From Deltaproteobacteria bacterium (GTDB lineage: Bacteria; Myxococcota_A; UBA9160; UBA4427), in contig NZHD01000020.1 of NCBI GenBank assembly GCA_002691205.1, positions 92,995 through 156,994 on the forward strand: DNA of 64,000 nucleotides. The letters run 5' to 3'. Positions 18,175 to 36,281 of this stretch are shown here, one piece after another; the first letter of the stretch is position 1, and every line of letters begins with the position of its first letter. Both the position numbers and the translations under genes were made by a program. The notes beneath the pieces are model-generated. The model did no database searches. It worked only from the letters and a program-made list of their open reading frames with translations, and was not told where the DNA came from.

Positions 18175-20593
18175 GACTACTTACGTAGCTAAGTTCAAGC
18201 CCTTTAAGCAACTCTCCATCGATCTCTTCAACATCCCGACGATTTTGCTCTGGGAGCACCACTTTTTCGATGCCGGCCCGTTTGGCCGCCAAAACCTTTT
18301 CCTTAATGCCCCCCACCGGCAAAACCTTGCCCCGGAGCGTAATCTCGCCCGTGATGGCCGTTCCTGAACGCACGGGGCGCCCAGTCATCATGGACGTGAG
18401 GGAGGTCACCATCGCAATCCCAGCCGAAGGCCCGTCCTTAGGGATCGCCCCTGATGGAACATGAACGTGGATATCTCGGTCGTCAAAGTCTGCCTGTGGA
18501 TCCAAGCCATACTCTTGGGCGTGACTCCGAAGCCACGAACGTGCGGCCTCTACAGACTCTCTCATGACGTCGCCTAAGGAACCCGTAAGCTTCAATTGCC
18601 CTGCACCCTTCATCCCGGTTGACTCTACGAACAGAATGTCTCCTCCTGCCGGTGTCCAGGCCAACCCCATGGCGACACCGGGTTGCAGTTCCTCCTCCAC
18701 CACCCCGGACTCATATTTATAGGGGCCAAGCATCTCGGGAAGGTCCTCAGGGACAATCCGAATCGCTTCCGAAAATTCGGATGGGTCCGATTCAGCGACT
18801 CTCCGCGCAACCTTCCTGCACACTGAACCGATTTCTCTTTCGAGATTCCGCACGCCCGCCTCTCGGGTGTATCGTTCAATCACGAACCCTAAGGCTTCTC
18901 GCGTCAGTTCAAAATCAATTTCAGTAATTCCATTCTCTTTTACTTGGCGCGGCACCAGAAAGGTCTCCGCAATCTCAAGTTTCTCTTCCAGCGTGTAGCC
19001 CGGCAGTTCGAGAACTTCCATTCGGTCCCTCAAAGCAGCCGGTATCGGCTCCATCAAATTCGCCGTCGCGATAAAAAGGACTTGCGAAAGGTCAAAAGGC
19101 ACCTCAAGAAAGTGGTCGCTGAACTCCGTATTTTGCTCCGGATCAAGAACCTCGAGAAGGGCTGACGAGGGGTCCCCACGTCCATCGGCTCCAATCTTGT
19201 CAATCTCATCGAGCATCATTACAGGATTCCGAGTTCCCGCCTTCCGAACGGATTGGATAATCCTCCCCGGCATTGCCCCGATGTATGTTCTACGGTGACC
19301 GCGAACCTCAGCCTCATCCCGAACGCCGCCTAATGAGAAACGAACAAATTCTCGATTCAGTGCCCTGGCGACCGACTTCCCGAGAGATGTCTTCCCCGTT
19401 CCTGGAGGACCTACAAGACACAGAATAGGTCCCTTGAGATCTTTTTTGAGGGACAAGACGGCAATGTATTCGAGAATTCGATCTTTGACTTTTTCAAGTC
19501 CGCAGTGGTCTTGATCGAGAATCTCGCGAGCCGACTGAATATCAAGACGGTCCTCACTGGCGTTCGACCAAGGGAGGTCCGTCATCCACTCGAGATAACT
19601 CCGTATAACACTATGCTCGGCCGCCGCAGGAGGCGTCTGAGAGAACCTTTCCAGTTCCCGTCTCGCCTGCTTGTCAGCTTCCTCGGGCATCTGAAGAGCG
19701 TCGATTTTATCTCCGAAGCGCTCAACCCCCTGTTCGCCCTCCTCGCTTTCACCAAGCTCCCTGCGAATCGCCTCAAGTTGCTGACGCAGCATGTATTCCT
19801 TCTGCGTCTTGCCCATATCACTCTGGACTTTTTCTTTAATCTCGGTCTCAATCTCGAGAGCTTGTCCTTCCTTAGTCAGTTGTGCCAAAACGAGCTTCAG
19901 CCGCTCCGGCACATCTAAGGCCGCCAGCACCTTTTGCTTGCCCGAAATATCCAGTTCTAAATTCGAAGCGACTAAATCAGCGAGCTTGGAAGGATCGTCT
20001 AGATTTGCGACCAGCACTTGAAGGTCATCGCTTAAACGAGCCGTTTCGGTGACAAGCATTCCGAATTGCTGAGAAACATTTCGAGTAAGCGCCTCGACTT
20101 CAACTGAATCCAAATCACCGGATTCAACTACATTTTTAATTTGCGCTCTCAGGTAGGGCTGATCGTCAATCAAAGAGTCAATAGAGACGCGAGCCACACC
20201 TTGGACCAGTAAACGATACGAGTCATCTGGAAATTTGAGCATCTTAACGACCCGCAGAACCGTTCCAACATCAAAAATATCGTCAAAGGTCGGCGGCCCT
20301 TCGATCTCTCTTTTCAAGGCTGCGCAAACCAAGAGCCGATCGGGCCGGAGCAAAACGTCATCAATTAATTCTTGAGAGGCCGGTGTGTTCACTAACAGCG
20401 GGGACAAAAGAAATGGAAAAAGAACCGTATTTTTAAGAGGTAAGATCGGAAGTTCCGAGGGGATATCCACCGGGTCAATCTGTCCGCCGCCCAGATCGCC
20501 TGATTCAACGCGCACCTCTACTCCGCCCGGAAGCACCGCCGAAGCCGGTTGCAGGACTTCATCTTCACTTCGGTCTTTATTTTCGTCGCTCAT
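18122..20593 (-). CDS. lon: ATP-dependent Lon protease
   Basis: LPILPL N-domain, GPPGTGKTS, RRTYIGAMPG, LDEIDK, DGPSAG (catalytic Ser), GGIKEK. Confidence 0.97.
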   Translation of the reverse strand: MSDENKDRSEDEVLQPASAVLPGGVEVRVESGDLGGGQIDPVDIPSELPILPLKNTVLFPFLLSPLLVNTPASQELIDDVLLRPDRLLVCAALKREIEGPPTFDDIFDVGTVLRVVKMLKFPDDSYRLLVQGVARVSIDSLIDDQPYLRAQIKNVVESGDLDSVEVEALTRNVSQQFGMLVTETARLSDDLQVLVANLDDPSKLADLVASNLELDISGKQKVLAALDVPERLKLVLAQLTKEGQALEIETEIKEKVQSDMGKTQKEYMLRQQLEAIRRELGESEEGEQGVERFGDKIDALQMPEEADKQARRELERFSQTPPAAAEHSVIRSYLEWMTDLPWSNASEDRLDIQSAREILDQDHCGLEKVKDRILEYIAVLSLKKDLKGPILCLVGPPGTGKTSLGKSVARALNREFVRFSLGGVRDEAEVRGHRRTYIGAMPGRIIQSVRKAGTRNPVMMLDEIDKIGADGRGDPSSALLEVLDPEQNTEFSDHFLEVPFDLSQVLFIATANLMEPIPAALRDRMEVLELPGYTLEEKLEIAETFLVPRQVKENGITEIDFELTREALGFVIERYTREAGVRNLEREIGSVCRKVARRVAESDPSEFSEAIRIVPEDLPEMLGPYKYESGVVEEELQPGVAMGLAWTPAGGDILFVESTGMKGAGQLKLTGSLGDVMRESVEAARSWLRSHAQEYGLDPQADFDDRDIHVHVPSGAIPKDGPSAGIAMVTSLTSMMTGRPVRSGTAITGEITLRGKVLPVGGIKEKVLAAKRAGIEKVVLPEQNRRDVEEIDGELLKGLELSYVSSLDEALKQTMSGPIASSA

Positions 20594-20928
20594 TCTTTCT
20601 CCACCGGCACGGATCTTCCTGACGGCGTCACCTTGGGAAGCGAAATCGACAGAAAGCCATCCACTAAATGTGCACTGACTCGATCTTGATCGAAAGGAAC
20701 CGAAATTTTGATTTCCCGATGGAAAGGCCCAAAAGCAATCTCCATCTGGTGGAGCCTGGCCACGTCCAATCCCTCAGGCGTGCGGCGAACACCCCCTATA
20801 CGAATGAGATCAGCGTCAGTATTGACCTTGATATCTTCGCTACTCACGCCAGGTAACTCCACCCGGATGATCACCGCACTTCCCGTTTCGAAGATGTCCA
20901 ACGCTGGCATCCATGCATCCCCCCTCAT
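20590..20928 (-). CDS. Hsp20/alpha-crystallin small heat shock protein
   Basis: PALDIFET, ELPGV, I.GVR, EIAFGPFHR, GFLSISLPK; first plausible ATG after the dnaK stop is 20928. Confidence 0.88.
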   Translation of the reverse strand: MRGDAWMPALDIFETGSAVIIRVELPGVSSEDIKVNTDADLIRIGGVRRTPEGLDVARLHQMEIAFGPFHREIKISVPFDQDRVSAHLVDGFLSISLPKVTPSGRSVPVEKE

Positions 20929-20948
20929 TCGGTCGGAATACTCGCCAT
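20925..20948 (-). other. 7-codon upstream ORF (MASIPTE) whose TGA overlaps the hsp20 ATG
   Basis: GAGGAGGTTCCT-ATG GCG AGT ATT CCG ACC GAA TGA, read directly from the sequence. Confidence 0.6.
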
Positions 20949-20980
20949 AGGAACCTCCTCTAGGGAGTTGGCCTGCTCTT

Positions 20981-22891
20981 TCAGGAATCGGTCTTCTCCT
21001 CCGTGTATTCAGCATCGATGACATCTTCATCTGCGCCCTGCTCCGACGAAGCCTCCTCGGTAGGTGCACCCTCTGCCTGAGCGGCCTCCGCCTTGTAGAG
21101 AGACTCTGTCACTTGATGAAGAGCCGCTTCTAGACTCTGCTTTCCACTATCCAGACGAGCCACATCGTTCGTTTCAAGATCTTTCTTGGCGTCTTCTATG
21201 GCAGAGGTCAGAGTCTGCTTAGCTTCTTCATCCATCTTCTCATCGTTATCAGTAATCAGCTTCTCCGCCTGGTAGATCATGCTGTCGAGTTGATTGTGCT
21301 TCTCAATCGTCTCTCTTCTGGAAGAGTCTTCGCTGGCGTGAGACTCTGCGTCCTTCACCATCCGGTCAATTTCTTCGTTCGCAAGACCGCCACTCCCTTC
21401 AATCCGAATCGACTGATCCTTGCCCGTGGCTTTATCCGAAGCTGTCACGGATAGGATTCCATTCGCATCGATGTCGAAGGTGACCTCAATCTGAGGAACT
21501 CCACGAGGCGCCGGTGGAATGCCATCGAGAATAAACTGACCCAACTCTCGGTTATCTGCGGCCATTTCACGCTCGCCCTGCAGAACTCGAATTTCCACTT
21601 GCGGCTGACTATCCGATGCCGTCGAGAACACATTCTGTGCTTTGGTGGGAATCGTCGTATTCCGTTCGATGAGACGTGTATTTACGCCGCCCAACGTCTC
21701 AATTCCCAAGGACAGCGGGGTTACATCAAGCAACAGAACATCCTTGACGTCGCCCGCCAGAACGCCGCCCTGAACGGCCGCACCCACGGCCACCACTTCA
21801 TCCGGATTCACGGTCTGGTTAGGCTCCTTGCCGAACAGCGCCTCTACCTTTTGCCTAACGAGAGGCACGCGAGTCGAACCACCGACGAGAACCACCTCAT
21901 CAATTTCTCCGGCCTTGATCCCCGCATCCGCAAGAGCTTTTCGGCAAGGCTCAAGGGTTCGCTCCACCAACTCTTCCACCAACTGCTCAAATTTAGCCCG
22001 GGTCAACTTCAGAGTGAGATGCTTGGGTCCAGTCTGATCAGCGGTGATGTAGGGAAGATTGATGTCCGTTGCTTGCGCAGACGAAAGCTCCATCTTCGCC
22101 TTCTCCGCAGCTTCGCGCAGACGCTGAAGGGCCATGGCGTCTTGAGTCAGGTCGATTCCTTGATCCTTTTTGAACTCGTCGACCAAGTACTCAATCACAC
22201 GCTGGTCAAGATTGTCTCCACCAAGATGCGTGTCTCCGCTCGTCGCCTTCACCTCAACCACGTTCTCGCCGACTTCAAGAATAGAGATATCAAAAGTACC
22301 ACCGCCAAAATCGTAGACGGCGATCTTCTCATCTTCTTCCTTGTCCAACCCATAGGCCAAAGCTGCGGCGGTCGGTTCATTGATGATGCGCTTGACCTCT
22401 AGGCCCGCAATCTTTCCGGCGTCTTTCGTCGCCTGCCTCTGAGCATCATTAAAATACGCGGGCACGGTAATCACAGCGTCAGTGACCTCGCCCCCAAGAT
22501 GCGATTCGGCCGCATCCTTCAACTTTGCAAGCGTCATGGCCGAGATCTCTGGCGGTGTGTAGTTCTGCCCATCAATTTCAACGACCACACTGCCTTCTTT
22601 TCCCTCAGCAACGGTGTAGGGAATCAAACTCACTTCGTCTGACACCTCAGACAAACGACGTCCCATAAACCTCTTCACCGAATAGATCGTCTTCTCCGGA
22701 TTGGTCACGGACTGGCGCTTGGCAATCGCACCCACCAGCCGCTCGCCCTCATCCGAAAAACCAACGACCGAAGGGGTTGTCCGCCCGCCCTCTTCATTCG
22801 CGATCACGGTGGGCTGTCCGCCCTCCATCACGGCCACAACCGAGTTCGTCGTGCCTAGATCAATCCCAATTACTTTTCCTGAATTCGCCAT
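20981..22891 (-). CDS. dnaK: Chaperone DnaK
   Basis: [59 protein letters not shown] tail. Confidence 0.98.
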
Positions 22892-23574: not shown

Positions 23575-24489
23575 ATGTCCGTGCTCGGCATCCGCCTCGC
23601 AAATATGGCCCTCTTTTTGATGGCGACATGGTTGACGGCTGACGTCGTCACTGACGTGGCGGCGTCCATTCTGATCCCGACGGCCGCCTCTTCCCAGGCT
23701 CGCTCAGCGCCCCCTCCAGCGACAACTCAACCCTGGTCCACCCGCCAAGCCATCCTGGACCGTAATCTCTTCGGGGCCCAAGTCATGGGCGACGACCTCC
23801 TTATCGAAGAAGAACCTGACGAGGAACTCCAAGAGACAAAACTCCCGCTTAAATTACTGGGCACAATCGCATCAAACGACCAAGTGGTCGCCAGCGCAGC
23901 CATCGAAAATAGTCGAAAACGAACTCACGAGGTTGTCAAAGTCGGCGATCGGCTCATGGACTTCAAGGAGGTTGTCGTCTCTCGAATTGATCGAGGCCGT
24001 GTCGTCCTTCAGAACGGAGCCAACCGGGAAGAGCTCAAGATGGGTGAAGAACTTATGGCCCAGGCCAAAGTCAAAGCGTCCAAGCCTAAACCTCGTCCAA
24101 GTCGCCGGCGAGCATCCAAACAAAAATCGAACGAAACCGTCCAAGACCGACTCAAGAGCCTGGCCGACAACTCTGGCATAAGCGGAGCAGCCGCTCTTTT
24201 GTCCCAAGCCCGAGTTCTTCCAAAGTACGAAGATGGAAAGATGGTGGGAATCGAACTGTCGCAGATCGAGTCCAACAGCCTCTATCAAAAAGTAGGGCTT
24301 CAAGACGGAGACATGCTCACAAGTGTGAATGGCGTCACCATTGACAATCCCGCCGCTAGCCAGGAACTACTTAAAGCCCTGACGGAATCCCCCGCACTCG
24401 TCGCAGAGGTGCTAACACCCAACGGGGAAGGAAAAGTGATTACCATCCCTCAAGAGCAATTGGCCGAACTTATGCAAGGAGCAGAGTAG
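23575..24489 (+). CDS. gspC: Type II secretion protein GspC with PDZ domain
   Basis: N-terminal TM, LPLKLLGT HR domain, GLQDGD..VNG PDZ; first gene of the gsp operon. Confidence 0.88.
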   Translation: MSVLGIRLANMALFLMATWLTADVVTDVAASILIPTAASSQARSAPPPATTQPWSTRQAILDRNLFGAQVMGDDLLIEEEPDEELQETKLPLKLLGTIASNDQVVASAAIENSRKRTHEVVKVGDRLMDFKEVVVSRIDRGRVVLQNGANREELKMGEELMAQAKVKASKPKPRPSRRRASKQKSNETVQDRLKSLADNSGISGAAALLSQARVLPKYEDGKMVGIELSQIESNSLYQKVGLQDGDMLTSVNGVTIDNPAASQELLKALTESPALVAEVLTPNGEGKVITIPQEQLAELMQGAE

Positions 24490-24495
24490 CTACCC

Positions 24496-27042
24496 GTGGA
24501 GAATTCGATACGGAGCATGAACCACCGCGCTGGTCTATTGGCGTTCGCAATCAGCGTTGCCCTTTTGGTATCGGGAACGGCATTCAGTCAGATAGGCCCG
24601 CAAGGTGGCCCCGGCGGCAATCGCTTCAGCCAGGGCGATGAGCTCGTGCAAATCGACTTCAAGGACGTAGAACTCACCGTAGTCATTGAGACGATTGCTC
24701 GAATCACCGGAAAAAACTTCATCTACGACGATCGCGTCCGCGGCCGGGTCACGATCGTTTCTCCATCAGAAGTTTCCGTCGACCAAGCCTTCGCCGTTTT
24801 TGAGTCGGTCCTCAAAATAAAAGGTTTCACTGCCATCCCGGGTCCAGGCGGTGCTCTCAAGATTGTCCCGATTCGAGATGCAAAAGAGTCGAGCCTCGAA
24901 ACCATTCAGGGAAGTCGACCCAGCCCAAACCGAGACATGTTCGTCACTCGACTTGTGCCTCTGCTGTATATAGATGCTGAAGGCATCACAAACACGATCA
25001 AACCACTGGTCTCCAAGGATGCTTCAATGGTGGCCTACGCTCCAACGAACACCATCATCCTTACAGATACCGAAGCCAACATCCGTCGACTGATGTCGAT
25101 CCTTGATGCCATTGACGTTGAAACTCATAAAGAAGAGCTGGCGGTCATCAAAATCGAGTATGCCGATGCGGCTACGCTCGGCGACCAAATATCTGAAATC
25201 TACGGCGCCGAGATGACGGAAACAGGCTCCAACGCTGCAAACCGGTCGCGACGTCGCACAAGCCGACGAACGAACAGCAGCAACAATTCGACTCCGAGCA
25301 CACTCGCCCCAGGCGCTAAATCTAAAGTTCGCATTATGACCGATGACCGCACCAATTCGCTTCTGGTGCTTGCCTCACGAAGCGCCCTTGGAGAGATACG
25401 AAGCCTCATCAAAAAATTAGATGTCCCTCTGGTAGGCGGCGGACGCATTCATGTGTACTACTTGAAGCACGCCGACTCAGAAGAACTCAGCAATACATTG
25501 AGCAGCATGCTCTCGGGAAAAACCGGCGGCTCCCCGTCCGGGCCCGGGCGTACCGGAACCACCGGCAATACGGGCCAGAGCCTGCGCTCCCAAGTTACGG
25601 AACTGGCTGAAGGCATCACCATGAGCGCCGACCCCGCGACCAATTCACTGGTCATCCAAGCGAGCAAGGAAGCCTACGAAGTTCTCACCGCAGTCATCGA
25701 GCAACTCGACATTGAAAGGCCCCAGGTCCTCGTCGAAGCGCTGATTCTTGAAGTGGATGTCACCGACAGCATCACCCTCGGAATGGACTGGCTCATCACG
25801 ACAATGAACGCGGATCAGCAATTCGTCTTCAGCACAGCCGCTGCCGCTGGATCTGGCTTAGGCGCACCTGAAGTACTCGGATTCATTTCAGGCGGACTCG
25901 ACCGCGACCCTGCCACCGGCGAACTCGTCCCAGGGCAGGACGGCACAGAGGTACAGTCCTTTATCCGCGCTCAAGCTCAGAATGGGAACATCAATATTGT
26001 CTCCGCGCCTCATATCTTAACTTCGGATAACGAAGAAGCCGAGATCAAAATCGGCGACAACATCCCAATCATCACAAGCCGAGTCCAGCAGGCGACGGGA
26101 AATACAACCGGCCTAGGCACGTCGGTAAACGTTGAGCGGCAAGACATCGGAGTCACCCTCCGAGTCACTCCTCAGATCAGCGAAGGCGACAACCTTCGTC
26201 TAAAGATTTTTCAGCAAATCGAACTGCTTAATCCGGGCATCCAGGGCGACATTGGAAGCGTCGAGGAAGTCGGTGTCGCTCTCTCAAATCGTAAAGTCGA
26301 GAACACAGTCGTAGTCAACGACAATGAGACTGTGGTCATCGGTGGACTCATTAGTGACCAATGGACAGAGAACGAGAGCAAGGTTCCCTTCCTCGGAGAC
26401 ATCCCTGGATTAGGCTGGGCGTTCAAGTCCAAGTCGAAGAGCCTGGTTAAAATCAATCTTCTCATTTTCCTCACGCCTCACATCGTACGCACCGAAGATG
26501 ATATCGAGTACGAGACCATCACAAGGCGAGAAGAATTCCGCAAAAGCGTTGACGAGACGTACTCCATGGATGTCGATAAATCGACCATGGATACAGGCAC
26601 CGAAGCGCCCAACGACCCTGTCGCCAAAGCCCTCAGAGAGCATACGCTCGACTACCCCATTACACGCAAAGAGCAACTCGATGCCGAGTACGCGCGAAAG
26701 CGACAAGAAGAAAAAGAAGCACTCAGGGCCCAAAATCAGTTGGCCACAAACGGTTACATGGTGAGGGCCAAAGTCTTCCAGCAGGAAGGTAAGGCTGCAG
26801 ATATGCTGACACGACTCCTCGATGCGGGCTACGAAGGATCATTAGTCTCGGGCGAGAGCGGAGCGAGCTTAATCTACGAACTTCTCGTCGGCCCCTACCA
26901 AGACCTATCGCGGGCCAAGAATGTCGCGAAGACACTCGGAGAAACCTACAACTTTTCGCCTTCAATTTTGCTCATAGAACTCCCAAAAACGACTCCACCG
27001 GGAACCGAAGAGGGGAAACCGGGATCGGAACCAACGTGGTAA
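24496..27042 (+). CDS. gspD: Type II secretion secretin GspD with C-terminal SPOR-like domain
   Basis: IDFKDVEL, NFIYDDRVRG, TNSL, LDIERPQVLVEA, SAPHILTSDNEEA, VPFLGDIPGLG, LLIFLTPHIV, plus a long C-terminal extension. Confidence 0.95.
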   Translation: MENSIRSMNHRAGLLAFAISVALLVSGTAFSQIGPQGGPGGNRFSQGDELVQIDFKDVELTVVIETIARITGKNFIYDDRVRGRVTIVSPSEVSVDQAFAVFESVLKIKGFTAIPGPGGALKIVPIRDAKESSLETIQGSRPSPNRDMFVTRLVPLLYIDAEGITNTIKPLVSKDASMVAYAPTNTIILTDTEANIRRLMSILDAIDVETHKEELAVIKIEYADAATLGDQISEIYGAEMTETGSNAANRSRRRTSRRTNSSNNSTPSTLAPGAKSKVRIMTDDRTNSLLVLASRSALGEIRSLIKKLDVPLVGGGRIHVYYLKHADSEELSNTLSSMLSGKTGGSPSGPGRTGTTGNTGQSLRSQVTELAEGITMSADPATNSLVIQASKEAYEVLTAVIEQLDIERPQVLVEALILEVDVTDSITLGMDWLITTMNADQQFVFSTAAAAGSGLGAPEVLGFISGGLDRDPATGELVPGQDGTEVQSFIRAQAQNGNINIVSAPHILTSDNEEAEIKIGDNIPIITSRVQQATGNTTGLGTSVNVERQDIGVTLRVTPQISEGDNLRLKIFQQIELLNPGIQGDIGSVEEVGVALSNRKVENTVVVNDNETVVIGGLISDQWTENESKVPFLGDIPGLGWAFKSKSKSLVKINLLIFLTPHIVRTEDDIEYETITRREEFRKSVDETYSMDVDKSTMDTGTEAPNDPVAKALREHTLDYPITRKEQLDAEYARKRQEEKEALRAQNQLATNGYMVRAKVFQQEGKAADMLTRLLDAGYEGSLVSGESGASLIYELLVGPYQDLSRAKNVAKTLGETYNFSPSILLIELPKTTPPGTEEGKPGSEPTW

Positions 27043-27057
27043 ATTTGAACCAAAATC

Positions 27058-28821
27058 ATGCGCACGGTCAGGATTCACATGAGTGAGGCCCCCTTGTCAG
27101 GCGATCTCGAACTTGGACAGATCCTTTTGCGAACGACTCGTTTGTCTCCGGAGCAGCTGGCTCGAGCCCGCTCATGCCAAGACGAGCGGGCCGAAAGGCT
27201 CAGCGAGGTGCTTATTGAAGAAGGCATGCTCAACTCAGACGAAGTCCTGCACGCTTTAGCCGAGCAGTTCGGACTCAACGTACAACAAACGATTTCACTC
27301 GAGGACATCGACGAGGAACTAGCGCATCAGGTTCCAATCGGCTTCGCAAAGCAACACCGGGTTTTGCCGACCTCCATGGATGAAAACCGAGGCATCATCC
27401 ATGTAATCGCCGCCGACCCTCTAGACCCCGGCCCCATTGATGATTTGCGAATCCTTTTCAACGGAGCCGATGTCGAGCTAAGCCTAGCGAGCGAGAGCGT
27501 CATTCTCTCGGCCATCAACCAAGTCTATGATCGAGGTGGCGTTTCCACGGATCAACTCGCGGAGGAGGCCAACGAAGACCTCGATGCTCTAGCCGATAGA
27601 GCATCCAATGAGCCCCAGGACCTCCTTGAAGCCACAGACGACGCTCCGATTATTAAACTCGTCAACTCCATGCTGCAGCACGCTGTAAAAGAACGCGCCA
27701 GCGATGTTCACATCGAACCCTTCGAGAAAGAAATCCGCATTCGCTTTCGAATCGACGATGTCCTTTACGAACCGATGAAGCCGCTCCCCAGAAGCTTGCA
27801 GGCCAGTATTGCCTCCCGGATCAAGATCATGGGGGGACTCGACATCGCCGAAAAGCGACTCCCTCAAGACGGTCGGATACGGCTCAAAATCGCAGGTCGG
27901 GATTATGATGTTCGACTCTCTACACTTCCTGTTGCCTTCGGTGAAAGGTTAGTCCTTCGCCTTCTGCCAGATAGCCAAGCCCTACTCGACCTCCCAAAGA
28001 TTGGCTTCGGCGAAGAGATGATTCGAGTTCTTGACCGAATCATCCGGCGACCGAACGGCATCTTCCTCGTCACCGGCCCCACCGGTAGCGGAAAAACCAC
28101 CACTCTACATGCATGTCTCTCCGAGATTAATGATTCTGAAAAGAATATTATTACGATTGAAGAACCTGTCGAAATCACGCAAGAGGGCATCGGGCAGATC
28201 GAGGTGAATCCAAAAGTCAACCTAACCTTTGCGACAGGACTCAGGGCCATCCTCAGGCAGGACCCCAACGTGGTGCTCGTAGGCGAAATCCGTGACAAAG
28301 AGACCGCGGACATTGCCATTCAGGCCTCACTCACCGGGCACTTGGTTTTATCAACCCTGCACACAAATGATGCTGCGAGCGCTATTACTCGACTTGTGGA
28401 TCAAGGCGTGGAGCCGTTTCTGGTTGGCTCGTCTCTCGTTGCGGTCCTAGCCCAAAGGCTCGTTCGCATTCTGTGCACCGAGTGCCGTGAAGCTTATACG
28501 GCGACAAACGATGAACTGATTGAGATGGGCGTCGAGCCATCGGGGCAGCCGGTCACACTCTACAAGGCAACGGGTTGCACTGCCTGCGTCCATACGGGAT
28601 ACCGAGGTCGGATCGGAATTTTTGAGTTGATGGTCGTCGACGATAATATTCGGGGAATGGTTTCACAAAATGTCGACGCAAAAACGATCAAGAAGCAAGC
28701 CGTCAATCAAGGCATGGGGACACTTCGTGCCGACGGGGCCCGCAAGGTTCTCAATGGACTCACCTCGTTGGCCGAACTCATGCGTGCTACTGAAGAGGAA
28801 GGCACGGTCGACCAGATTTAA
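27058..28821 (+). CDS. gspE: Type II secretion ATPase GspE
   Basis: ASDVHIEP, RLPQDG, GPTGSGKTTT, RQDPNVVLVGEIRD, TLHTND, CxxC/CxxC, YRGRIG; the start may be ATG 27079. Confidence 0.96.
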   Translation: MRTVRIHMSEAPLSGDLELGQILLRTTRLSPEQLARARSCQDERAERLSEVLIEEGMLNSDEVLHALAEQFGLNVQQTISLEDIDEELAHQVPIGFAKQHRVLPTSMDENRGIIHVIAADPLDPGPIDDLRILFNGADVELSLASESVILSAINQVYDRGGVSTDQLAEEANEDLDALADRASNEPQDLLEATDDAPIIKLVNSMLQHAVKERASDVHIEPFEKEIRIRFRIDDVLYEPMKPLPRSLQASIASRIKIMGGLDIAEKRLPQDGRIRLKIAGRDYDVRLSTLPVAFGERLVLRLLPDSQALLDLPKIGFGEEMIRVLDRIIRRPNGIFLVTGPTGSGKTTTLHACLSEINDSEKNIITIEEPVEITQEGIGQIEVNPKVNLTFATGLRAILRQDPNVVLVGEIRDKETADIAIQASLTGHLVLSTLHTNDAASAITRLVDQGVEPFLVGSSLVAVLAQRLVRILCTECREAYTATNDELIEMGVEPSGQPVTLYKATGCTACVHTGYRGRIGIFELMVVDDNIRGMVSQNVDAKTIKKQAVNQGMGTLRADGARKVLNGLTSLAELMRATEEEGTVDQI

Positions 28822-28831
28822 ATTTTCAGAT

Positions 28832-28860
28832 CGAGTCGCCCTGCCCTAAAAAGCGACTCG
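28832..28860. repeat. Intergenic inverted repeat between gspE and gspF
   Basis: CGAGTCGC-N13-GCGACTCG with no U-tract. Confidence 0.5.
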
Positions 28861-28985
28861 GCCTACATTTTTGATAAAAAATCTCTAAATGATGCCACCC
28901 AGCGACACGAAAAGTGCGTTTGCCAACTTAACGACCTGAATGCTACCGCGCACGAGTCAAAAGTTCGGTTCAAAGGAATTACACC

Positions 28986-30218
28986 GTGCCTACTTACTCT
29001 TACAAAGGCGTGTCCAATGCGGGAAAAACCGTAAAAGGAAACGTCAGCGCCGAGAACATTAAGGCGGCTAGAACACGTGTAAGGAGTGACGGAGTCATCC
29101 TCACGGACCTGATTGAAAACGACGCTTCAAATGACGCACAAAAAAAAGAATCGTTCGGACCCAGCTTTGAATTTGAGTTTCTATCACGAATTCCAGCGAC
29201 AGAGCGATCCATCGCAACTCGACAGCTCGCCACTCTTATTTCCTCGGGGATCCCGCTCGTTGAGTCCCTCAGCGCCCTAGTTGAACAAATCGAGCATCGC
29301 GGTCTAAAGAACGTCATTTCTCAAGTTCGAGATCGCGTCAACGAAGGAGCATCCCTCGCGGAAGCGTTGTCGGCGTCTGGCAAGTTCGACACGCTCTACA
29401 TCAGCATGGTGAGAGCCGGTGAAGCCAGCGGCGCACTTGACACAGTGTTAGCCCGAATGGCCGACTACTTAGAGGACCAAGTTCGACTCTCCGGCAAAGT
29501 AACTTCGATCCTTGTATACCCCGCCTCGATGCTCGCGTTTACTCTTTTGGTGGTGGCCTTGCTAGTCACCGTCGTTCTTCCGCAAATCAACGACCTGCTC
29601 CTATCACTCGGAGGAGAGCTGCCTTTTTTTACTCGTGTCATCATTAGCGGTTCGGACTTTATCTCCGCCTGGTGGTGGCTCATCCTGATCGGCATCATTG
29701 CTTTGCTTGTAAGCTTTCGAGCCTACAAAAAAACCGAGCAAGGGCGAATCGCCGTCGATCGCTTCATTTTAAAACTGCCCATCATTGGCAGAGTCTCTCG
29801 AACAATTGCCATCGCACGCTTCTCGCGAACTTTCTCGTCCCTTCTCTCGGGCGGCGTGAGCATCATCCAAGCCTTGGATATCTCTCGCCATGTTGCCCGG
29901 AACGCCGTCATTGAAGAGGCCGTTGAGAACGCACGCACAAGCGTTCTTGAAGGAGCCTCCCTGGCTCAACCACTCAGAGCCAGCGGCCAATTTCCGCCCA
30001 TGGTCCTTACCATGGTCGAAGTGGGAGAACGTGCCGGTGAACTTGAGTCGATGCTGGTCAAAGTCGCTGAAACCTACGACGAGCAGGTCGAAACCACCAT
30101 CACAAAGCTCACATCCCTGATGGAGCCCCTTCTCATCCTCATCATGGTCGGAATCGTACTCTTTATTATTATGGCTACCCTTATGCCATTGATGTCCGTC
30201 ACAAACTCACTGGGCTAA
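28986..30218 (+). CDS. gspF: Type II secretion inner membrane protein GspF
   Basis: RQLATLISSGIPL, AGEASGAL, YP, GERAGELE, MEP motifs. Confidence 0.96.
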   Translation: MPTYSYKGVSNAGKTVKGNVSAENIKAARTRVRSDGVILTDLIENDASNDAQKKESFGPSFEFEFLSRIPATERSIATRQLATLISSGIPLVESLSALVEQIEHRGLKNVISQVRDRVNEGASLAEALSASGKFDTLYISMVRAGEASGALDTVLARMADYLEDQVRLSGKVTSILVYPASMLAFTLLVVALLVTVVLPQINDLLLSLGGELPFFTRVIISGSDFISAWWWLILIGIIALLVSFRAYKKTEQGRIAVDRFILKLPIIGRVSRTIAIARFSRTFSSLLSGGVSIIQALDISRHVARNAVIEEAVENARTSVLEGASLAQPLRASGQFPPMVLTMVEVGERAGELESMLVKVAETYDEQVETTITKLTSLMEPLLILIMVGIVLFIIMATLMPLMSVTNSLG

Positions 30219-30277
30219 TGCCCGCACAATTCATCGAGAAAGACACCAACAGTCTCGAAGTCAGAAAGGAAAACATC

Positions 30278-30769
30278 GTGCATACCCAAAAACACATCGC
30301 AGTCCATCCATCGAAAAAAGTGCTCAATCACGGATTTACATTGATTGAGATTATGGCCGTGGTTCTCATTATGGGACTGCTGATGGGAATTATCGGCGTA
30401 AGCATCAGTGGCCAAATCGACAAAGCTCGATCAGCCACAGCTCGAGCGCAGATCAGTCAACTGGAAAGCGCACTTGAGTTCTACCGGATGGACAATGGAC
30501 GCTACCCCAATACAGCTCAGGGACTCGATGCCCTCGTCAACCGTCCGACCTCGGAGCCCGAACCCCGCAACTATCCGACCGGGGGGTACCTCAAAAAATC
30601 AAATGCCATCCTAGATCCCTGGGGAGAACCCTTTCAATACGAATATCCTGGATCACGAAACGCTCACTCTTTTGACGTCTGGACGCAGGGAGCCGATCAA
30701 TCCCCCGGCGGCGAAGGTGGAGATGGAGACATCGGGAACTGGGAAGCCGAGAAATTCGAGGGAGCCTAG
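30278..30769 (+). CDS. gspG: Major pseudopilin GspG
   Basis: G|FTLIEIMAV, ALEFYRMDNGRYP, DPWG, GADQ..GGEG..DIGNW; GTG start after AAGGA. Confidence 0.95.
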   Translation: MHTQKHIAVHPSKKVLNHGFTLIEIMAVVLIMGLLMGIIGVSISGQIDKARSATARAQISQLESALEFYRMDNGRYPNTAQGLDALVNRPTSEPEPRNYPTGGYLKKSNAILDPWGEPFQYEYPGSRNAHSFDVWTQGADQSPGGEGGDGDIGNWEAEKFEGA

Positions 30770-30772
30770 TTC

Positions 30773-31378
30773 TTGGGAAACCAAGGCCGTACCTCTCAAG
30801 AGGGCTTTACACTCATTGAAATGATGGCGGTGGTCGCCATCATCGGTTTGATGTTGGGCGTCATGTTGCCCAATTTGACAGCCACGAGAGGGTCCGAACT
30901 CAAAAGACAGGCTCAAGACCTAGCCTCCTATTTAGAACTCGCTCGAGAGAGAGCCATCGTAACGAGCTCACCTCATCGAGTCTGGATCGAAATGGAGGAA
31001 GGCGCTTTTCGAGTAGATTGGTGGGTGAGCGAGGAGAAGGCCTTTGGCGAGCTCGAAGAAGGAGAAAATCTCAATTCACAAGCCTCCATCCAGACAGACC
31101 GATACTCACTCACACCGCCCGCGGCTGAATATCGAGACTACTTCCCCATCCCTTCTCGGTTCGGACGCGAGCAATGGCTTGAAGACGATACATTTTTTGA
31201 GGGAATCAATACGGAAACAGGCTGGGTAACCGAAGGTGAAGTTCAACTCGTCTTTCAAACAGATGGAAGCACAGACTATGCAGAGCTCACCCTCACCGAT
31301 GATTGGGGAAACCAAGTGATTCTTGAGGTCCAACCCTTGCTCGATTACGTTCGCGTTCATAGAGTTGAAGAGGATTAG
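30773..31378 (+). CDS. gspH: Minor pseudopilin GspH
   Basis: G|FTLIEMMAV and position in the operon. Confidence 0.8.
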   Translation: MGNQGRTSQEGFTLIEMMAVVAIIGLMLGVMLPNLTATRGSELKRQAQDLASYLELARERAIVTSSPHRVWIEMEEGAFRVDWWVSEEKAFGELEEGENLNSQASIQTDRYSLTPPAAEYRDYFPIPSRFGREQWLEDDTFFEGINTETGWVTEGEVQLVFQTDGSTDYAELTLTDDWGNQVILEVQPLLDYVRVHRVEED

Positions 31379-31383
31379 TCTTC

Positions 31384-32037
31384 GTGCTCCCCCGAGTCAC
31401 CCGTCACGCTTCGCCTGCGAAAAGAAACCAAGGATTTACCCTTCTTGAAGTCCTAGGAGCAGTCGCCGTTCTCGGGATTTGGTATTTCGTTCTCGCCGCC
31501 TTAGCGACGGATGGACTGCTCAAACAAGGTCAGAATCTAAGAAAGCTCCAAGCTGGAATCATCGCGGACCGGGTCCTCGCTGAACTGGAAGTCAGCTCCC
31601 TGGGCGGCTCTGTCCCTGAGAGGATGGACGAGACGCTTGAGGGCGAACTTCCCGAGGATGAGATTTTCACGATTCGCAAACAGGTCCACGAATTCACCCT
31701 TGACTATCGCCCCGCCAATGCCCCAAGAGAAGAGCTCGTTCTCTATGGCGCTACTCCGGACGAGAGGCTTCCCCTCCCAAACCTCCTCGGTCAAAATATT
31801 CCAGGCTTCGCTCAGCACCTGTATACGGTGAAGGTTCAAGTTTCATGGACTGAAGGATTCATGGCAGCAGAGAGCGTACATCGCACCAGTTACGTCTTTG
31901 ACATGCTTTCCGCTGCCGAAGTCTACGAGTCCGCCGAAATAAAGGAAGCAGACGAGGCCGACGAAGAGGATCAAGCCGAGGAGGAAGAACCTAGTTCCGG
32001 GCGCAACTCTAAAAGTCTTGAGGAGCAAGCAGAATGA
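31384..32037 (+). CDS. gspI: Minor pseudopilin GspI-like, acidic C-tail
   Basis: G|FTLLEVLGA and position in the operon. Confidence 0.72.
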   Translation: MLPRVTRHASPAKRNQGFTLLEVLGAVAVLGIWYFVLAALATDGLLKQGQNLRKLQAGIIADRVLAELEVSSLGGSVPERMDETLEGELPEDEIFTIRKQVHEFTLDYRPANAPREELVLYGATPDERLPLPNLLGQNIPGFAQHLYTVKVQVSWTEGFMAAESVHRTSYVFDMLSAAEVYESAEIKEADEADEEDQAEEEEPSSGRNSKSLEEQAE

Positions 32038-33044
32038 AAGCCACCTCCCAGAGTTCTGCAGTCCACGGCTTTACGCTGCTTGAGGTCTTAGCCGCAATTT
32101 TCCTGACTTCGGTCATCACCGCTTTTGCCGTTGGATTCTATATCAACCTCTCAGATTCGAGTTCACGAGCCACCGAAGTCATGCGAGAAGGCATCCGGGC
32201 CACCGCCGTCCTCAATCGCATCGCAAGAGATCTGGACAGCGCCACCCTCATGGTGAAAGCCGAAGAAGCAGACCCGCTCACACACCCCTGGTACTTCGTC
32301 GCCGAAAGTGACTTTGCCTTTGATGGGGCTGACCGAATCAAATTTATCTCACGCAACCATAAGCCCACAGCGAGTTCAACTCATACCTCGGATCTCATCC
32401 AAGTGGCCTATCAAACCACTCCAGAAGAGGACGAAACCCTGAGCCTCTATCGCTGGATCAGCCCCGCTCTGCCCGAAGGGTATGATGGATCTTTTCCTAG
32501 CCTAGATGATCCTCAAAGCTTCATTGTCGCTGAAGGACTCTCATCGTTCTCGATGCAATTTCTCACCTCCGAGGGTGAGTGGGTTGAGCAATGGGACTCC
32601 ACACAACTTGAAAGATCTGGCCAGCTCCCCATGGGCATCAGAATTAACTTATCCCTTTCTACGGAAGAAGAGGGCCCGATGGATCAACTCGAAGAGCCCC
32701 GCCTATACTCGCGGCACCTCAACCTCCGGAACACGCCGATTAATCTAGAACAGATGCTTTTAGCCAAAATGGAGGCCGAAAATGGTGGTCCTCGAGAAGC
32801 CAGGCGAGGCGGATTGGGCAATGAAGAGGGGATTGATCTAGATGGCGACGGCGAACCTGATGTTCTAAGCGGAGATTCCAACAACCCGAACTCTCCAGCT
32901 GCACCCGGCTCTGTTGCGGACTGCATACGAAAGAACTGGGATCAATGTTCCACACGATTTGGGACGGCCAACTGTAGTCAGTGGTCCACGCTGTCTCAAT
33001 CTCAAGTCAGTAGTTTCGGAATTGATTTATCATGGTGCCAATAA
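32034..33044 (+). CDS. gspJ: Minor pseudopilin GspJ-like with C-terminal extension
   Basis: G|FTLLEVLAA, RIARDL, GQLPMGIRINL and position in the operon. Confidence 0.78.
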   Translation: MKATSQSSAVHGFTLLEVLAAIFLTSVITAFAVGFYINLSDSSSRATEVMREGIRATAVLNRIARDLDSATLMVKAEEADPLTHPWYFVAESDFAFDGADRIKFISRNHKPTASSTHTSDLIQVAYQTTPEEDETLSLYRWISPALPEGYDGSFPSLDDPQSFIVAEGLSSFSMQFLTSEGEWVEQWDSTQLERSGQLPMGIRINLSLSTEEEGPMDQLEEPRLYSRHLNLRNTPINLEQMLLAKMEAENGGPREARRGGLGNEEGIDLDGDGEPDVLSGDSNNPNSPAAPGSVADCIRKNWDQCSTRFGTANCSQWSTLSQSQVSSFGIDLSWCQ

Positions 33045-34129
33045 TGAAACCCACCAGCAAGCGCCTACAGGGAGTGGTCCTTCCGCTTGTACTCATTATC
33101 GGACTTCTGCTGTCTGCAGGGATTTTTACTTTCGTTCGTCGAAGTATTGTAGACGGCATCCTCGTGGCCAATCGCGACAACGGTGCGGCCGCTATGGCCC
33201 TTGCGCGAGGCGGAGTGCAGATCGGAACGGCCGTTCTCTATCAACAAAGATACTCCTCACAAATTCAAGCGATGGAAGGTCGAGATCCAGGGGCGACACT
33301 TGATGACTTCTGGGCCCAAATCAGGCACAGCAACCTGACCACCGAATGGGGCGGAAGCCTCGTCATCGAAATCGAAGATGCAGGTGCCCGGCTGAATCTC
33401 AACTCGCTTGTCCCGCACGCCGTTCCAAACGAGGAGGGTGAAGTCAGTGCTGAATCTCAGGCCTCAGAGGACACGGAAGAATTTCTCGTTGAATTGCTCC
33501 GAAAAATCATCTCCGAAATTCCACCGAACTCTGGCGAAGAACTCGTCTATGACGAAAGAGAGCTAGCACGAAACCTCATCGACTACCTCGATGCTGATGA
33601 TGTCGCAATCAACGGCCGAAACGAAAACGACTATTACCTAAGCCAGAATCCACCCCATTCCCAAGCCAACGGCCCCATCCTAAGCATGGAAGAGGTCGCT
33701 ATGATCGAAGGTTTTGATGCCCGGCTCGCAGAGGCAATGAAGCCCTACATCACAGTTTATCCTCTCTTCGGAGAAGAAGGGATCAACCTCAATACTGCAC
33801 CCAGTCATGTGCTTTCTCTGATCTACCATGGAAGCAGCGGTGACATGCGACTGGCCAGCGAGGCGATGGTGGGAGACATCATGCAAGCCCGGGAAACCGA
33901 CCGCTTTGTCTGCAGTCAAACGGAGAGTGATCCAGACAAATGCATCTCCCTCACCGAAGTTGGACTGGGCGAGGGTGGAATTTTCCCCCCAGTCACCCTG
34001 CCGCAGGTTTCCCTTGTCTTCAAAATTACTTCTCGGGGGGAAGTCAACCAGGTGGCGAAGACCGTCGAGGCCGTAATCGATCTGACGAACAGAGAATCAC
34101 CACAGCTGCTATCTTGGAAATCCAATTAG
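33044..34129 (+). CDS. gspK: Minor pseudopilin GspK
   Basis: QG|VVLPLVL, IEDAGARLNLN, IDYLDADD, EEVAMIEGF, INLNTAP; ATG overlaps the gspJ stop. Confidence 0.9.
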   Translation: MKPTSKRLQGVVLPLVLIIGLLLSAGIFTFVRRSIVDGILVANRDNGAAAMALARGGVQIGTAVLYQQRYSSQIQAMEGRDPGATLDDFWAQIRHSNLTTEWGGSLVIEIEDAGARLNLNSLVPHAVPNEEGEVSAESQASEDTEEFLVELLRKIISEIPPNSGEELVYDERELARNLIDYLDADDVAINGRNENDYYLSQNPPHSQANGPILSMEEVAMIEGFDARLAEAMKPYITVYPLFGEEGINLNTAPSHVLSLIYHGSSGDMRLASEAMVGDIMQARETDRFVCSQTESDPDKCISLTEVGLGEGGIFPPVTLPQVSLVFKITSRGEVNQVAKTVEAVIDLTNRESPQLLSWKSN

Positions 34130-34152
34130 AGGGCCGAAAAGAGAGACCAACG

Positions 34153-35727
34153 ATGCCAATGCTCAAAAATGTACTCGGGCTAGACCTGGGATCACAAGCC
34201 TTCAAGGCCGTGGAGTTCAAACAAACCCTACGAGGACTTGAACTCGTGCAGATGAGGATTCACTCTCGCGCTTCTGATGAAATTGACTTTTCCGAGCAGG
34301 TCCGTGATTTCATTCAGCAAAATGAATTCTCCACCGAGTACGTCTGCTCAGCAGTCCCCGGAAGCCTCGTCTCAAGCCGGACCGTCGATTTTCCGTTCCG
34401 CGATCGAAAAAGGCTTAATCAAGCCGTTCCGTTTCAAGTCGAAGGCGATATCCCCTTCGATATCGAGGACGTGCTCATCGAGTGGCAAATCATCGGTGGT
34501 GATCGAAACCACTCCACGGTCAACACGAGTGTCGCTCAGCGAAGCCACATCTCCGAACTCGTCGAGAAACTCGCAGAGGCCAACGTACAGTCCCGAGTCA
34601 TTGAGTCAGGGGGGCTCGTCCTTGCAAATCTGACGACACTTTTTGAACTTGAGGGAAGTCGAGTTCTCGTCGATCTGGGTCATACCCAAACCACTTTCTG
34701 CCTGCTACGTGACGGCCAACCCATTGGAACCCGAACGGTCCCAGTTGGAGGGCGAGCGATTACCCAAGCCATGGCCAGTGATCGGGGGCTAGACCTGACG
34801 GATGCAGAAAGACTCAAATGCGAACAAGGTATTTTTGAAGAAGGTTGGGGAAGTCCCTATCCCAACGCGGTGGCCGCGGTCGATCGAATTGCCAGAGAAA
34901 TTCTGAGAAGTATCGAGGGCTCCAGCACCCCAACCGGTGAGCCCGCAAATCCGTCCATGTTCGAGATCACGCTCATGGGAGGAGGAGCACATCTCAAGGG
35001 GATCTCTGAATATCTAAGTGAGCGTACAGGGATTCATACTTCTCTAATTGCCGCCCCTGAAGATAGTGAAGAGGCCCAACTCGCCTCGGGAGGAGACCCC
35101 GTTCTCTTCGGACCCGCCATTGCGCTCGCTCTTCGAGGCACATCGCGTGCGACTACCCAATCCAACTTTCGAAAAGAAGACTTCGCGTTCAAGACGGACT
35201 ACGGCTGGTTACGTAGCAAGGAGCTACGGCCTACCCTTGTGCTCGCCGGCCTGACACTCCTGCTCCTTGGGGCCTCTAGCATTGCTTCCATCAGCATAGA
35301 ATCCAATCGTGCCGATAGAATGGAAAGACAGATCGCAAGTCAATATGGCCGAGCCTTCCCTGGCGAACCCATCCCGAATCGTCCTGTCGCCGCTATGCGA
35401 CAAGCCGTAGATGATGCACGCGAACGGGCTGATTTTCTGGGACTCTACGGAGGCAACCTGTCCGCACTCGACCTCTTGTCTCTCCTCTCGGAGAAAATTC
35501 CACCAGATTTAAAAATACGCTTCGAAGAAGTAAACATCGACCGAAATGTGATTCGAATTAAGGTCGTTGCCGAGAATTATGAGTCACAGGATCGAATGGA
35601 AAACTTACTCCGGTCGGAGACCGTTTTCTCGGAAGCGAATGTCTCAGGAAGTGCCAAACGGATGAAGGATGGCAGCGTCACTTTCGCGCTGAGCATTCCA
35701 CTTGAACAGGTGGGGGAAGAATCGTGA
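34153..35727 (+). CDS. gspL: GspL/PilM-like actin-fold assembly protein with TM and periplasmic domain
   Basis: LGLDLGS, VDLGH..T, GGRAIT, LMGGGA, then a TM helix; start moved to MPMLKNV. Confidence 0.85.
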   Translation: MPMLKNVLGLDLGSQAFKAVEFKQTLRGLELVQMRIHSRASDEIDFSEQVRDFIQQNEFSTEYVCSAVPGSLVSSRTVDFPFRDRKRLNQAVPFQVEGDIPFDIEDVLIEWQIIGGDRNHSTVNTSVAQRSHISELVEKLAEANVQSRVIESGGLVLANLTTLFELEGSRVLVDLGHTQTTFCLLRDGQPIGTRTVPVGGRAITQAMASDRGLDLTDAERLKCEQGIFEEGWGSPYPNAVAAVDRIAREILRSIEGSSTPTGEPANPSMFEITLMGGGAHLKGISEYLSERTGIHTSLIAAPEDSEEAQLASGGDPVLFGPAIALALRGTSRATTQSNFRKEDFAFKTDYGWLRSKELRPTLVLAGLTLLLLGASSIASISIESNRADRMERQIASQYGRAFPGEPIPNRPVAAMRQAVDDARERADFLGLYGGNLSALDLLSLLSEKIPPDLKIRFEEVNIDRNVIRIKVVAENYESQDRMENLLRSETVFSEANVSGSAKRMKDGSVTFALSIPLEQVGEES

Positions 35728-36281
35728 ATAGTATCCTCGAGCAGTTGCGCTCGACTTGGACAAACCTATCGCCTAGAGAGCAAATCCTTCTCGGAGTTCT
35801 GGGCGTCGGACTGGGGCTCAGCATTCTCCTCTTCGGGATGATCATGCCATTCGTGCAAATGGCGGATCGTGCAGAGGAGCGAGTCGATTCGGCGCAGCGT
35901 CAAGCCCAGCTCATGCAACGGTTAAGTGCAGAGCACAGCGAGATCCAAAACCGACTCTCTGGTGTAGAGCAACGGATACAAACTCAAGGAGGTCGACAAA
36001 ATATAAAAACGCTCCTTGAAAGCCTGGCTCAAAAATCCTCTGTACGAATCGCATCCATGGAAGAGCGTCAAGCGGGCAAGAACAACCAGTATCGAGAAAC
36101 CAAGGTAGAAGTCACGTTAAAAGGGGTCTCTCTAGGGCAGACCATTCGATACCTTCACAACATCGAAGACTCAAACCAACAACTCTCAGTGAAGGGGCTT
36201 CGAATTAAATCAAAGAAGTCGGGTAACGAAGCGCAACTTCTCGATATCACCTTTTCTGTTTCCTCTTTCGAAGCGGCCTAA
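35724..36281 (+). CDS. gspM: Type II secretion protein GspM
   Basis: LSPREQILL + TM + coiled coil + ferredoxin-like C-terminus. Confidence 0.85.
   Translation: MNSILEQLRSTWTNLSPREQILLGVLGVGLGLSILLFGMIMPFVQMADRAEERVDSAQRQAQLMQRLSAEHSEIQNRLSGVEQRIQTQGGRQNIKTLLESLAQKSSVRIASMEERQAGKNNQYRETKVEVTLKGVSLGQTIRYLHNIEDSNQQLSVKGLRIKSKKSGNEAQLLDITFSVSSFEAA

Follow-up and report, generated by a model that had tools for sequence, protein, structure and literature searches.

How large secretin channels pass through the peptidoglycan and become attached to the cell wall is only partly understood, and almost all of the known answers are gammaproteobacterial: pilotins, the GspAB pair, OutB, the AMIN domains of PilQ, and the N-terminal SPOR domain of LspD. 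That secretins need anchoring to peptidoglycan is established, with AMIN serving in PilQ, SPOR in LspD, and GspA/GspB elsewhere (PMC9239104, PMC5285504). LspD is the secretin of Legionella pneumophila's type II secretion system (T2SS), in which the SPOR domain lies N-terminal to N0; Legionella is without pilotin, GspA or GspB homologues, and the SPOR domain of LspD has been proposed to provide both peptidoglycan binding and localisation (PMC6617341, PMC9239104, bioRxiv 10.1101/525063). In 2022, LspD was stated to be the only T2SS secretin known with a dedicated peptidoglycan-binding domain (PMC9239104). The locus considered here lies in a 64,000-nucleotide stretch of contig NZHD01000020.1 (the window), and concerns a T2SS secretin, GspD, that carries a SPOR domain at its opposite, C-terminal end. 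An earlier note on this DNA, made by a model from the letters alone (hereafter the original prediction), proposed a C-terminal SPOR-like domain that makes the secretin self-anchoring; its overview of secretin anchoring missed the precedent of Legionella LspD.

From its sequence, the open reading frame (ORF) at 24496..27042 encodes GspD, the outer-membrane secretin, as part of a complete T2SS; the source is an uncultured marine member of the Myxococcota. It scores 533.7 bits against the GspD equivalog TIGR02517 (cut-off 351.35), aligns to the solved secretins XcpQ (5WLN), E. coli GspD (5WQ7) and PulD (6HCG), and has a Pfam architecture of N0 (53-123), three Secretin_N domains, Secretin (493-665) and SPOR (751-815). 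The N-terminus, read directly, is a Sec-type signal peptide, MNHRAGLLAFAISVALLVSGTAFS, followed by Q, with cleavage between AFS and Q, and nothing other than this signal peptide precedes N0.

Evidence for the C-terminal SPOR domain comes from both profile and structural comparisons. Against the Pfam SPOR family (PF05036, gathering cut-off 21 bits), the whole of GspD scores 24.1 bits (E=4.5e-5) and its last 99 residues 28.7 bits (E=1.7e-6), with scores for the tail in the range of 27.6-28.7 bits. The family was also matched in the tails of 24 of 24 aligned relatives, with a best E-value of 3.2e-16, and full-length relatives score up to 47.7 bits, so that the modest match of the single protein is strongly reinforced by the tails of its relatives. 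Furthermore, PF05036 is already annotated automatically on at least one database relative. A phmmer search of PDB sequences with the single tail gave no match; a search of the PDB with the tail-family profile gave as best matches the SPOR chains of FtsN (1UTA), CwlC (1X60) and RlpA (6I05). The peptides quoted in the original prediction are present, LLIFLTPHIV at residues 655-664, then a charged stretch, and then GYMVRAKVFQQEGKAADMLTRLLDAGYEGSLVSGESGASLIYELLVGPYQDLSRAKNVAKTLGETYNFSPSILLIE. The start it assigned to the feature, 26520, is out of the gspD frame, in a register that contains stops, and the in-frame tail runs from 26470.

The 190-residue tail was modelled by AlphaFold2 with a 24-sequence alignment, at a mean predicted local distance difference test (pLDDT) score of 82.5; adding 658 converts tail numbering to protein numbering. 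The model consists of a helix at 9-32, a disordered stretch at 33-49, a long helix at 50-91, and a beta-alpha-beta-beta-alpha-beta domain at 94-170. This last domain is predicted with a pLDDT of 94-98, with strands at 94-103, 123-130, 133-143 and 165-170 and helices at 106-118 and 146-160 of the tail, and, as in a SPOR fold, its four strands form an antiparallel sheet that has both helices on the same side. In protein numbering, the elements are beta1 752-761, alpha1 764-776, beta2 781-788, beta3 791-801, alpha2 804-818 and beta4 823-828, and the key positions are R757 (canonically Gln), F761, E795 (canonically Arg) and the G799-P800 pair. Foldseek matched the model to RlpA-SPOR (6I05) with a template-modelling (TM) score of 0.84 and a root mean square deviation of 1.6 A over 74 columns, to CwlC (1X60) with a TM score of 0.72, and also to DedD (6ZTG), while other ferredoxin-like folds such as PII and ACT were matched far more poorly (TM scores of 0.3-0.47). 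The fold of the GspD tail and its membership of the SPOR family are thus secure, and the proposal of a C-terminal SPOR domain on GspD is borne out both by profile scores above the cut-off and by the structural match to RlpA-SPOR, so that the lack of any SPOR profile or structural match, named in the original prediction as a refuting outcome, did not arise.

The region between the barrel and the SPOR domain had been described as a charged helical linker. A charged stretch is indeed there, but the region is not a mere linker, as it holds two conserved elements. The first is a helix, H1, that follows FLTPHI directly and has the highest mean pairwise identity (0.52) of all tail segments. Full-length alignments to GspD structures 5WQ7 and 6I1Y reach residues 689 and 701, and H1 would fit the position of the S-domain, the label S-domain-like being a positional one. 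The second lies in the first half of a long helix, H2, and contains the motif NPV...L..H..RYPxERxxEIE (identity 0.44), in which Y720, R724 and E729 are nearly invariant; the remainder of H2 is a charged, Lys/Glu/Arg-rich spacer that is poorly conserved (identity 0.18). With an identity of 0.39 for the SPOR domain across the family, this domain and the two spacer motifs exceed the remaining tail in conservation. Of 58 relatives, 49 have 85-104 residues between LTPHI and SPOR, and the median is ~100 residues; this constant spacer length, together with conservation of the NPV..YPxER motif, suggests a defined geometry or a docking surface.

The architecture is not peculiar to the window. With the tail as query, just 2 relatives came from a word-index search, and 94 representative clusters from an exhaustive phmmer search that covered 1.84 billion representatives; every full-length secretin tested among these 94 matches has N0, three Secretin_N domains, Secretin and a C-terminal SPOR. 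Close relatives among GTDB species genomes are metagenome-assembled genomes (MAGs) that bear the label Myxococcota or Deltaproteobacteria, the isolate names of several being in the style of marine surveys, and a tail of ~185 residues is found in all related loci with a complete 3' end. A search of 401 genomes of the phylum with a profile of the tail recovered the complete tail (profile positions 1-181, E-values of 1e-32 to 1e-71) from 73 members of the window's class. These include every genome sampled from the window's family (26 of 26), 33 from its order (out of 38 with any match), and 14 of 14 genomes of the other family of the class among the matches listed. The tail-bearing ORFs are ~820-1,640 residues long, and shorter where cut by a contig end. 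It could be argued that mis-assembly or a frameshift has joined gspD to a separate small SPOR gene, as the source genome is a MAG of 120 contigs. However, the same continuous ORF and spacer length recur in more than 70 independent genomes, single-contig assemblies included, and an artefactual fusion is thus effectively refuted, its probability being negligible.

Outside the class, in the same 401 genomes, only the SPOR part of the profile matches, in small ORFs of 200-500 residues that resemble ordinary SPOR proteins, and no SPOR was found in the GspD orthologues of 14 genomes from other classes of the phylum. In these orthologues, a conserved, S-domain-like proximal stretch with the pattern FLTPYIIRD..DLR.IFERKM.ERQEF.DRYFVF...DYSRTRGLV is followed by a disordered end that is either acidic or proline-rich. 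Because GspDs of the other classes have an extended C-terminus without SPOR, the SPOR domain looks like a class-specific addition onto a GspD C-terminus that was already extended. A GspD from a Desulfobacteraceae MAG (locus L036) shares 31% identity in the core, and has an unrelated linker of 124 residues and a C-terminal SPOR that scores 59.9 bits and is canonical in sequence (FTIQVGSF..WYRLRVGYY); the unrelated linker and canonical SPOR point to a second, independent C-terminal fusion.

Other C-terminal additions were observed on secretins in the course of these comparisons. GspDs of Binatia MAGs (loci L050-L059, for example L050:8206-8889) have a distinct, strongly conserved C-terminal domain of ~105 residues, RYVLLAAFAE.GTPPPGLQ...YPEG.PVD...LHWR, predicted with a pLDDT of ~90; in nine loci it has neither a Pfam match nor a PDB fold match, and it is an uncharacterised secretin appendage. 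Four GspD loci from outside Myxococcota (L033, L041, L045 and L046) have tails of 73-357 residues, three of them long and Pro-rich, that share a terminal motif, PAPGSR....L.Y, a possible signal for sorting or docking at the C-terminus. The matches of the exhaustive search also include a DotU/TssL protein of a type VI secretion system with three C-terminal SPOR domains (P0058) and a PDZ protein with three SPOR domains (P0082), and SPOR seems to be re-used as a wall anchor in other envelope machines.

The notion of a self-anchoring secretin was tied to the statement that no gspA, gspB or gspS lies in the operon. The operon does lack all three, but a GspA-type protein is encoded elsewhere in the genome. 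This GspA/ExeA-type protein of 598 residues (contig C25, 87619-89415; L083:1120-2916, plus strand) has an AAA_22 domain at 42-170 and a C-terminal PG_binding_1 domain at 524-576. Its gene is unlinked to the gsp operon and overlaps by 4 bp, and is thus translationally coupled to, the next ORF (L083:2913-3956, plus strand), which encodes 347 residues with a short cytoplasmic head, one transmembrane helix, a Pro/Ala-rich linker and a C-terminal domain of ~60 residues, a GspB-like layout. This ORF has no match to any profile, a relaxed Pfam scan included, and a genome search for GspB (PF16537) gave no match, nor did it give one in the control, so that this negative is uninformative. Of 81 genomes of the class, 78 encode a GspA-like protein; the SPOR domain therefore does not appear to substitute for GspA, and the argument for self-anchoring from a missing ExeAB fails at the level of the genome; two small genomes (G108 and G188) are without both the GspA-like protein and the GspD tail. 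Rather, the GspA-like protein and its GspB-like neighbour probably still act in assembly, with SPOR adding to that route. As for pilotins, a search for PulS/OutS (PF09691) found just a match of 14.8 bits in a frame with stops, in a genome that is 94% complete, such that absence is unproven, and AspS (PF16549) had no match in the same genome, with the control matched in E. coli. A secretin of the liposecretin or self-piloting type, as in HxcQ and XpsD, is ruled out, as there is no Cys among the first 45 residues of GspD.

The genome encodes two other secretins and one other SPOR protein. A PilQ-type secretin of 1052 residues, with N-terminal AMIN, STN and secretin domains, is found ~60 kb upstream on the same contig (L061:2795-5953, minus strand), and a second GspD-like secretin of 751 residues lies beside a TPR protein (L062:1701-3956, minus strand) and has a tail of ~115 residues in which no recognised domain or peptidoglycan module was found. 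The other SPOR protein, of 188 residues and bitopic, is encoded just downstream of argS (contig C17; L063:1428-1994, minus strand), and is probably an FtsN/DedD-like division protein.

The reading favoured here, with a probability of about two-thirds (0.68), is that the C-terminal spacer and SPOR domain tether the GspD pore to peptidoglycan, as judged from the sequence and the predicted model. In solved GspD pentadecamers, the chain exits the barrel on its periplasmic outer surface near the outer membrane, with the S-domain as its continuation. In the window protein, the C-terminus is extended past the barrel by the S-domain-like helix, the acidic disordered segment, the ~42-residue NPV..YPxER helix and SPOR, and the spacer would bring the SPOR domain of each subunit within range of the peptidoglycan, where it would bind glycan strands. 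The maximal reach, at full extension, is estimated at ~12 nm, of which the helix would contribute ~6 nm (42 residues at 1.5 A per residue) and the 17-residue flexible segment up to ~6 nm; the gap between outer membrane and peptidoglycan is of similar size, so that every subunit could have its SPOR domain on the wall. If the pore is a pentadecamer like the solved GspDs, up to 15 weak binders, each in the micromolar range, would act with strong avidity. The pore would thereby be stapled to the cell wall, and the site of pore assembly may be biased by this as well.

A number of observations weigh against such a tether. The organisms that carry the SPOR-bearing GspD are uncultured, and the window protein's own Pfam score is just modestly over the cut-off; furthermore, H1 and H2 alone are similar to no PDB chain, leaving the S-domain label without independent sequence support. 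The other observations concern the glycan-binding face. The single highly conserved glycan-contacting side chain of SPOR domains is a Gln at position 8 of the hidden Markov model (RlpA Q270, FtsN Q251), which contacts N-acetylmuramic acid and N-acetylglucosamine (NAM/NAG); Phe is preferred at position 12 (RlpA F274), and a basic patch is always present, though formed by residues that differ between members (FtsN R285, RlpA R309, DamX R380/K418) (PMC6895207). The window protein has Arg757 at position 8, and across the family the position is occupied by Q in 34 members, L in 21, R in 20, T in 9, V in 6, S in 5 and E in 3, with Gln accounting for ~31%. The equivalent of FtsN R285 and RlpA R309 is Glu795, and Glu is found there in 87 of 127 members (~70%); the next outward-facing residue of beta3 is R, Q or H in 89 of the 127 and Leu in the window protein. 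The 188-residue SPOR protein encoded elsewhere in the genome keeps the canonical YLIQVGAF...WRVRVGP. Because the canonical Gln and Arg positions carry Arg and Glu, the binding face of GspD-SPOR is remodelled, and its ligand specificity could differ.

It is conceivable, if quite unlikely, that a SPOR fold so altered on the face of its beta-sheet, with Arg at position 8 and a conserved Glu on beta3, has been re-used for another partner, be it peptidoglycan in modified or peptide-bearing form, a different polysaccharide, or a protein, for which a lipoprotein and the GspA/GspB-like pair are candidates. Retention of the Glu in ~70% of members despite its exposure at the surface suggests selection for a different interface, and basic residues at position 8 of beta1 and on beta3 covary in a compensating manner only weakly (Fisher p ~0.05, phylogeny-uncorrected). 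However, SPOR domains share less than 20% mutual identity, yet all of those tested bind denuded glycan, with dissociation constants of 1-10 uM, and their basic patches use different residues in different members, so that R757 and K759 on beta1 might supply the patch here. Also retained are the whole fold, the GP motif and, at position 12, F761, where 92 of 112 aligned members have Phe or Tyr. Peptidoglycan binding is still the likeliest function of GspD-SPOR, with a probability of roughly two-thirds.

A related question is whether the domain would direct where the pore is built. The original prediction had the secretin targeted to septum or pole. GspD-SPOR could recognise the denuded glycans made by amidases, such that GspD is inserted at the division site and ends at the new poles, as has been proposed for AMIN-bearing PilQ, and simple anchoring is compatible with this scheme. 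Every SPOR domain characterised so far localises to division sites, the AMIN domains of PilQ recruit the type IV pilus (T4P) machine to future division sites (PMC5285504), and the same has been suggested for LspD in the published Legionella discussion. Set against these parallels, the canonical Gln and Arg contacts are replaced in GspD-SPOR, the avidity of up to 15 copies per pore could permit binding anywhere on the wall, and the class-wide presence of a GspA-type peptidoglycan-binding assembly factor means that septal remodelling is not the sole route through the wall; septal or polar targeting is thus possible, if somewhat doubtful. The C-terminal module might also act as a molecular ruler that sets the spacing between outer membrane and peptidoglycan and, with the GspA/GspB-like pair, couples pore assembly to remodelling at the division site, though this extension of the tether is rather unlikely.

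The gene and domain features of the locus are collected below. The window has a G+C content of ~54%, and the genes form an uninterrupted T2SS operon on the plus strand in the order gspC-D-E-F-G-H-I-J-K-L-M, contiguous over 23575..36281, in which gspC and gspE-M accompany gspD.

Table. Features of the gsp operon and of the gspD product, in window positions
Feature	Positions	Strand	Basis
gspC	23575..24489	+	Pfam T2SSC, 48 bits; PDZ matches below or near cut-off
gspD, 848 aa	24496..27042	+	TIGR02517 and Pfam architecture
Secretin domain (outer-membrane barrel and gate), residues 493-665	25972..26490	+	PF00263, 160 bits
Helix H1, residues 667-690, EDDIEYETITRREEFRKS...	26494..26565	+	AlphaFold2 helix, tail 9-32; motif EDLE..SIRKREEF
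Variable acidic disordered segment, residues 691-707	26566..26616	+	pLDDT <50; pairwise identity 0.18
Long helix H2, residues 708-749	26617..26742	+	AlphaFold2 helix, tail 50-91, pLDDT 78-93
SPOR domain, residues 751-828	26746..26979	+	Pfam, tail profile, AlphaFold2, Foldseek
Pro/Gly/Glu-rich C-terminal end, residues 829-848, LPKTTPPGTEEGKPGSEPTW	26980..27039	+	poorly conserved
gspE ATPase	27058..28821	+	T2SSE, 465 bits, and MshEN
gspF platform protein	28986..30218	+	T2SSF, 203 bits
gspG, gspH, gspI, gspJ, gspK pseudopilins	30218..34129	+	T2SSG, GspH, N_methyl, T2SSJ, T2SSK matches
gspL (PilM/FtsA-like N-terminal domain and GspL_C) and gspM	33940..36281	+	Pfam
Candidate gspN-position gene, 284 aa	36299..37153	+	position only

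The ORF listed for gspL (33940-35727, 595 residues) overlaps gspK by 190 nt, and because of this overlap its real start is probably downstream of the listed ATG. The 284-residue ORF that follows gspM has a weak YhdP/AsmA-like match at its N-terminus (27.9 bits vs a cut-off of 46), and is followed in turn by a fusion of ArsR helix-turn-helix and S-adenosylmethionine-dependent methyltransferase domains (window 36299-38142 for the two). Upstream, a Lon protease - Hsp20 - DnaK heat-shock cluster (18122-22891, minus strand) is divergent from the gsp operon, with an intergenic region of ~680 bp between them.

In the full-text literature, no description was found of a C-terminal SPOR on a secretin, the Legionella protein with its N-terminal domain being the only case. 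As in LspD, a GspD-family T2SS secretin is covalently fused to SPOR in the window protein. The topologies differ, however, in that the SPOR of LspD precedes N0 and is proximal to the inner membrane, whereas that of the window protein (751-828) comes after the barrel and the S-domain-like helix, on a spacer of ~90 residues that starts from the outer-membrane-proximal end. Moreover, a GspA-like protein is retained in the source genome, while Legionella is without GspA. Fusion to SPOR clearly took place independently in the two secretins. The PilQ secretins of type IVa pili in P. aeruginosa and M. xanthus likewise bear their own module for septal or denuded peptidoglycan (PMC5285504), but the module is AMIN, N-terminal and part of a T4P system in PilQ, as opposed to SPOR, C-terminal and part of a T2SS in the window GspD.

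Coupling of the secretin to peptidoglycan during or after assembly is also the proposed job of GspA/GspB (ExeA/ExeB, OutB) (PMC9239104). Unlike the window protein, in which the peptidoglycan module lies within the secretin, these are separate inner-membrane proteins with PG_binding_1 or a C-terminal extension, and the presence of a GspA-type protein alongside SPOR-GspD indicates that the two are not alternatives in the window's class. Compared to FtsN, DamX, DedD, RlpA and CwlC, the GspD domain belongs to the same Pfam family and has the same fold (as in the close match to RlpA-SPOR), but it sits on an outer-membrane pore rather than on a division protein or lytic enzyme, and the canonical Gln (position 8) and Arg (FtsN R285) of these domains are Arg and Glu in the window domain. 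This altered face may broaden the rules for SPOR ligands, and the SPOR-GspD class offers a simple, testable system for the spacing of pore, outer membrane and wall. If C-terminal SPOR tails have arisen independently in several phyla, as the Desulfobacteraceae protein hints, a fused C-terminal peptidoglycan binder would be a general way, so far overlooked, of anchoring secretins outside the Gammaproteobacteria. Both the concept and the domain family were already known, and the opposite topology, structured spacer and class-wide conservation are new, so that the advance is incremental rather than conceptual: across a class of marine Myxococcota, the same peptidoglycan-binding fold that LspD carries at one end of the channel is attached at the other, outer-membrane-proximal end.

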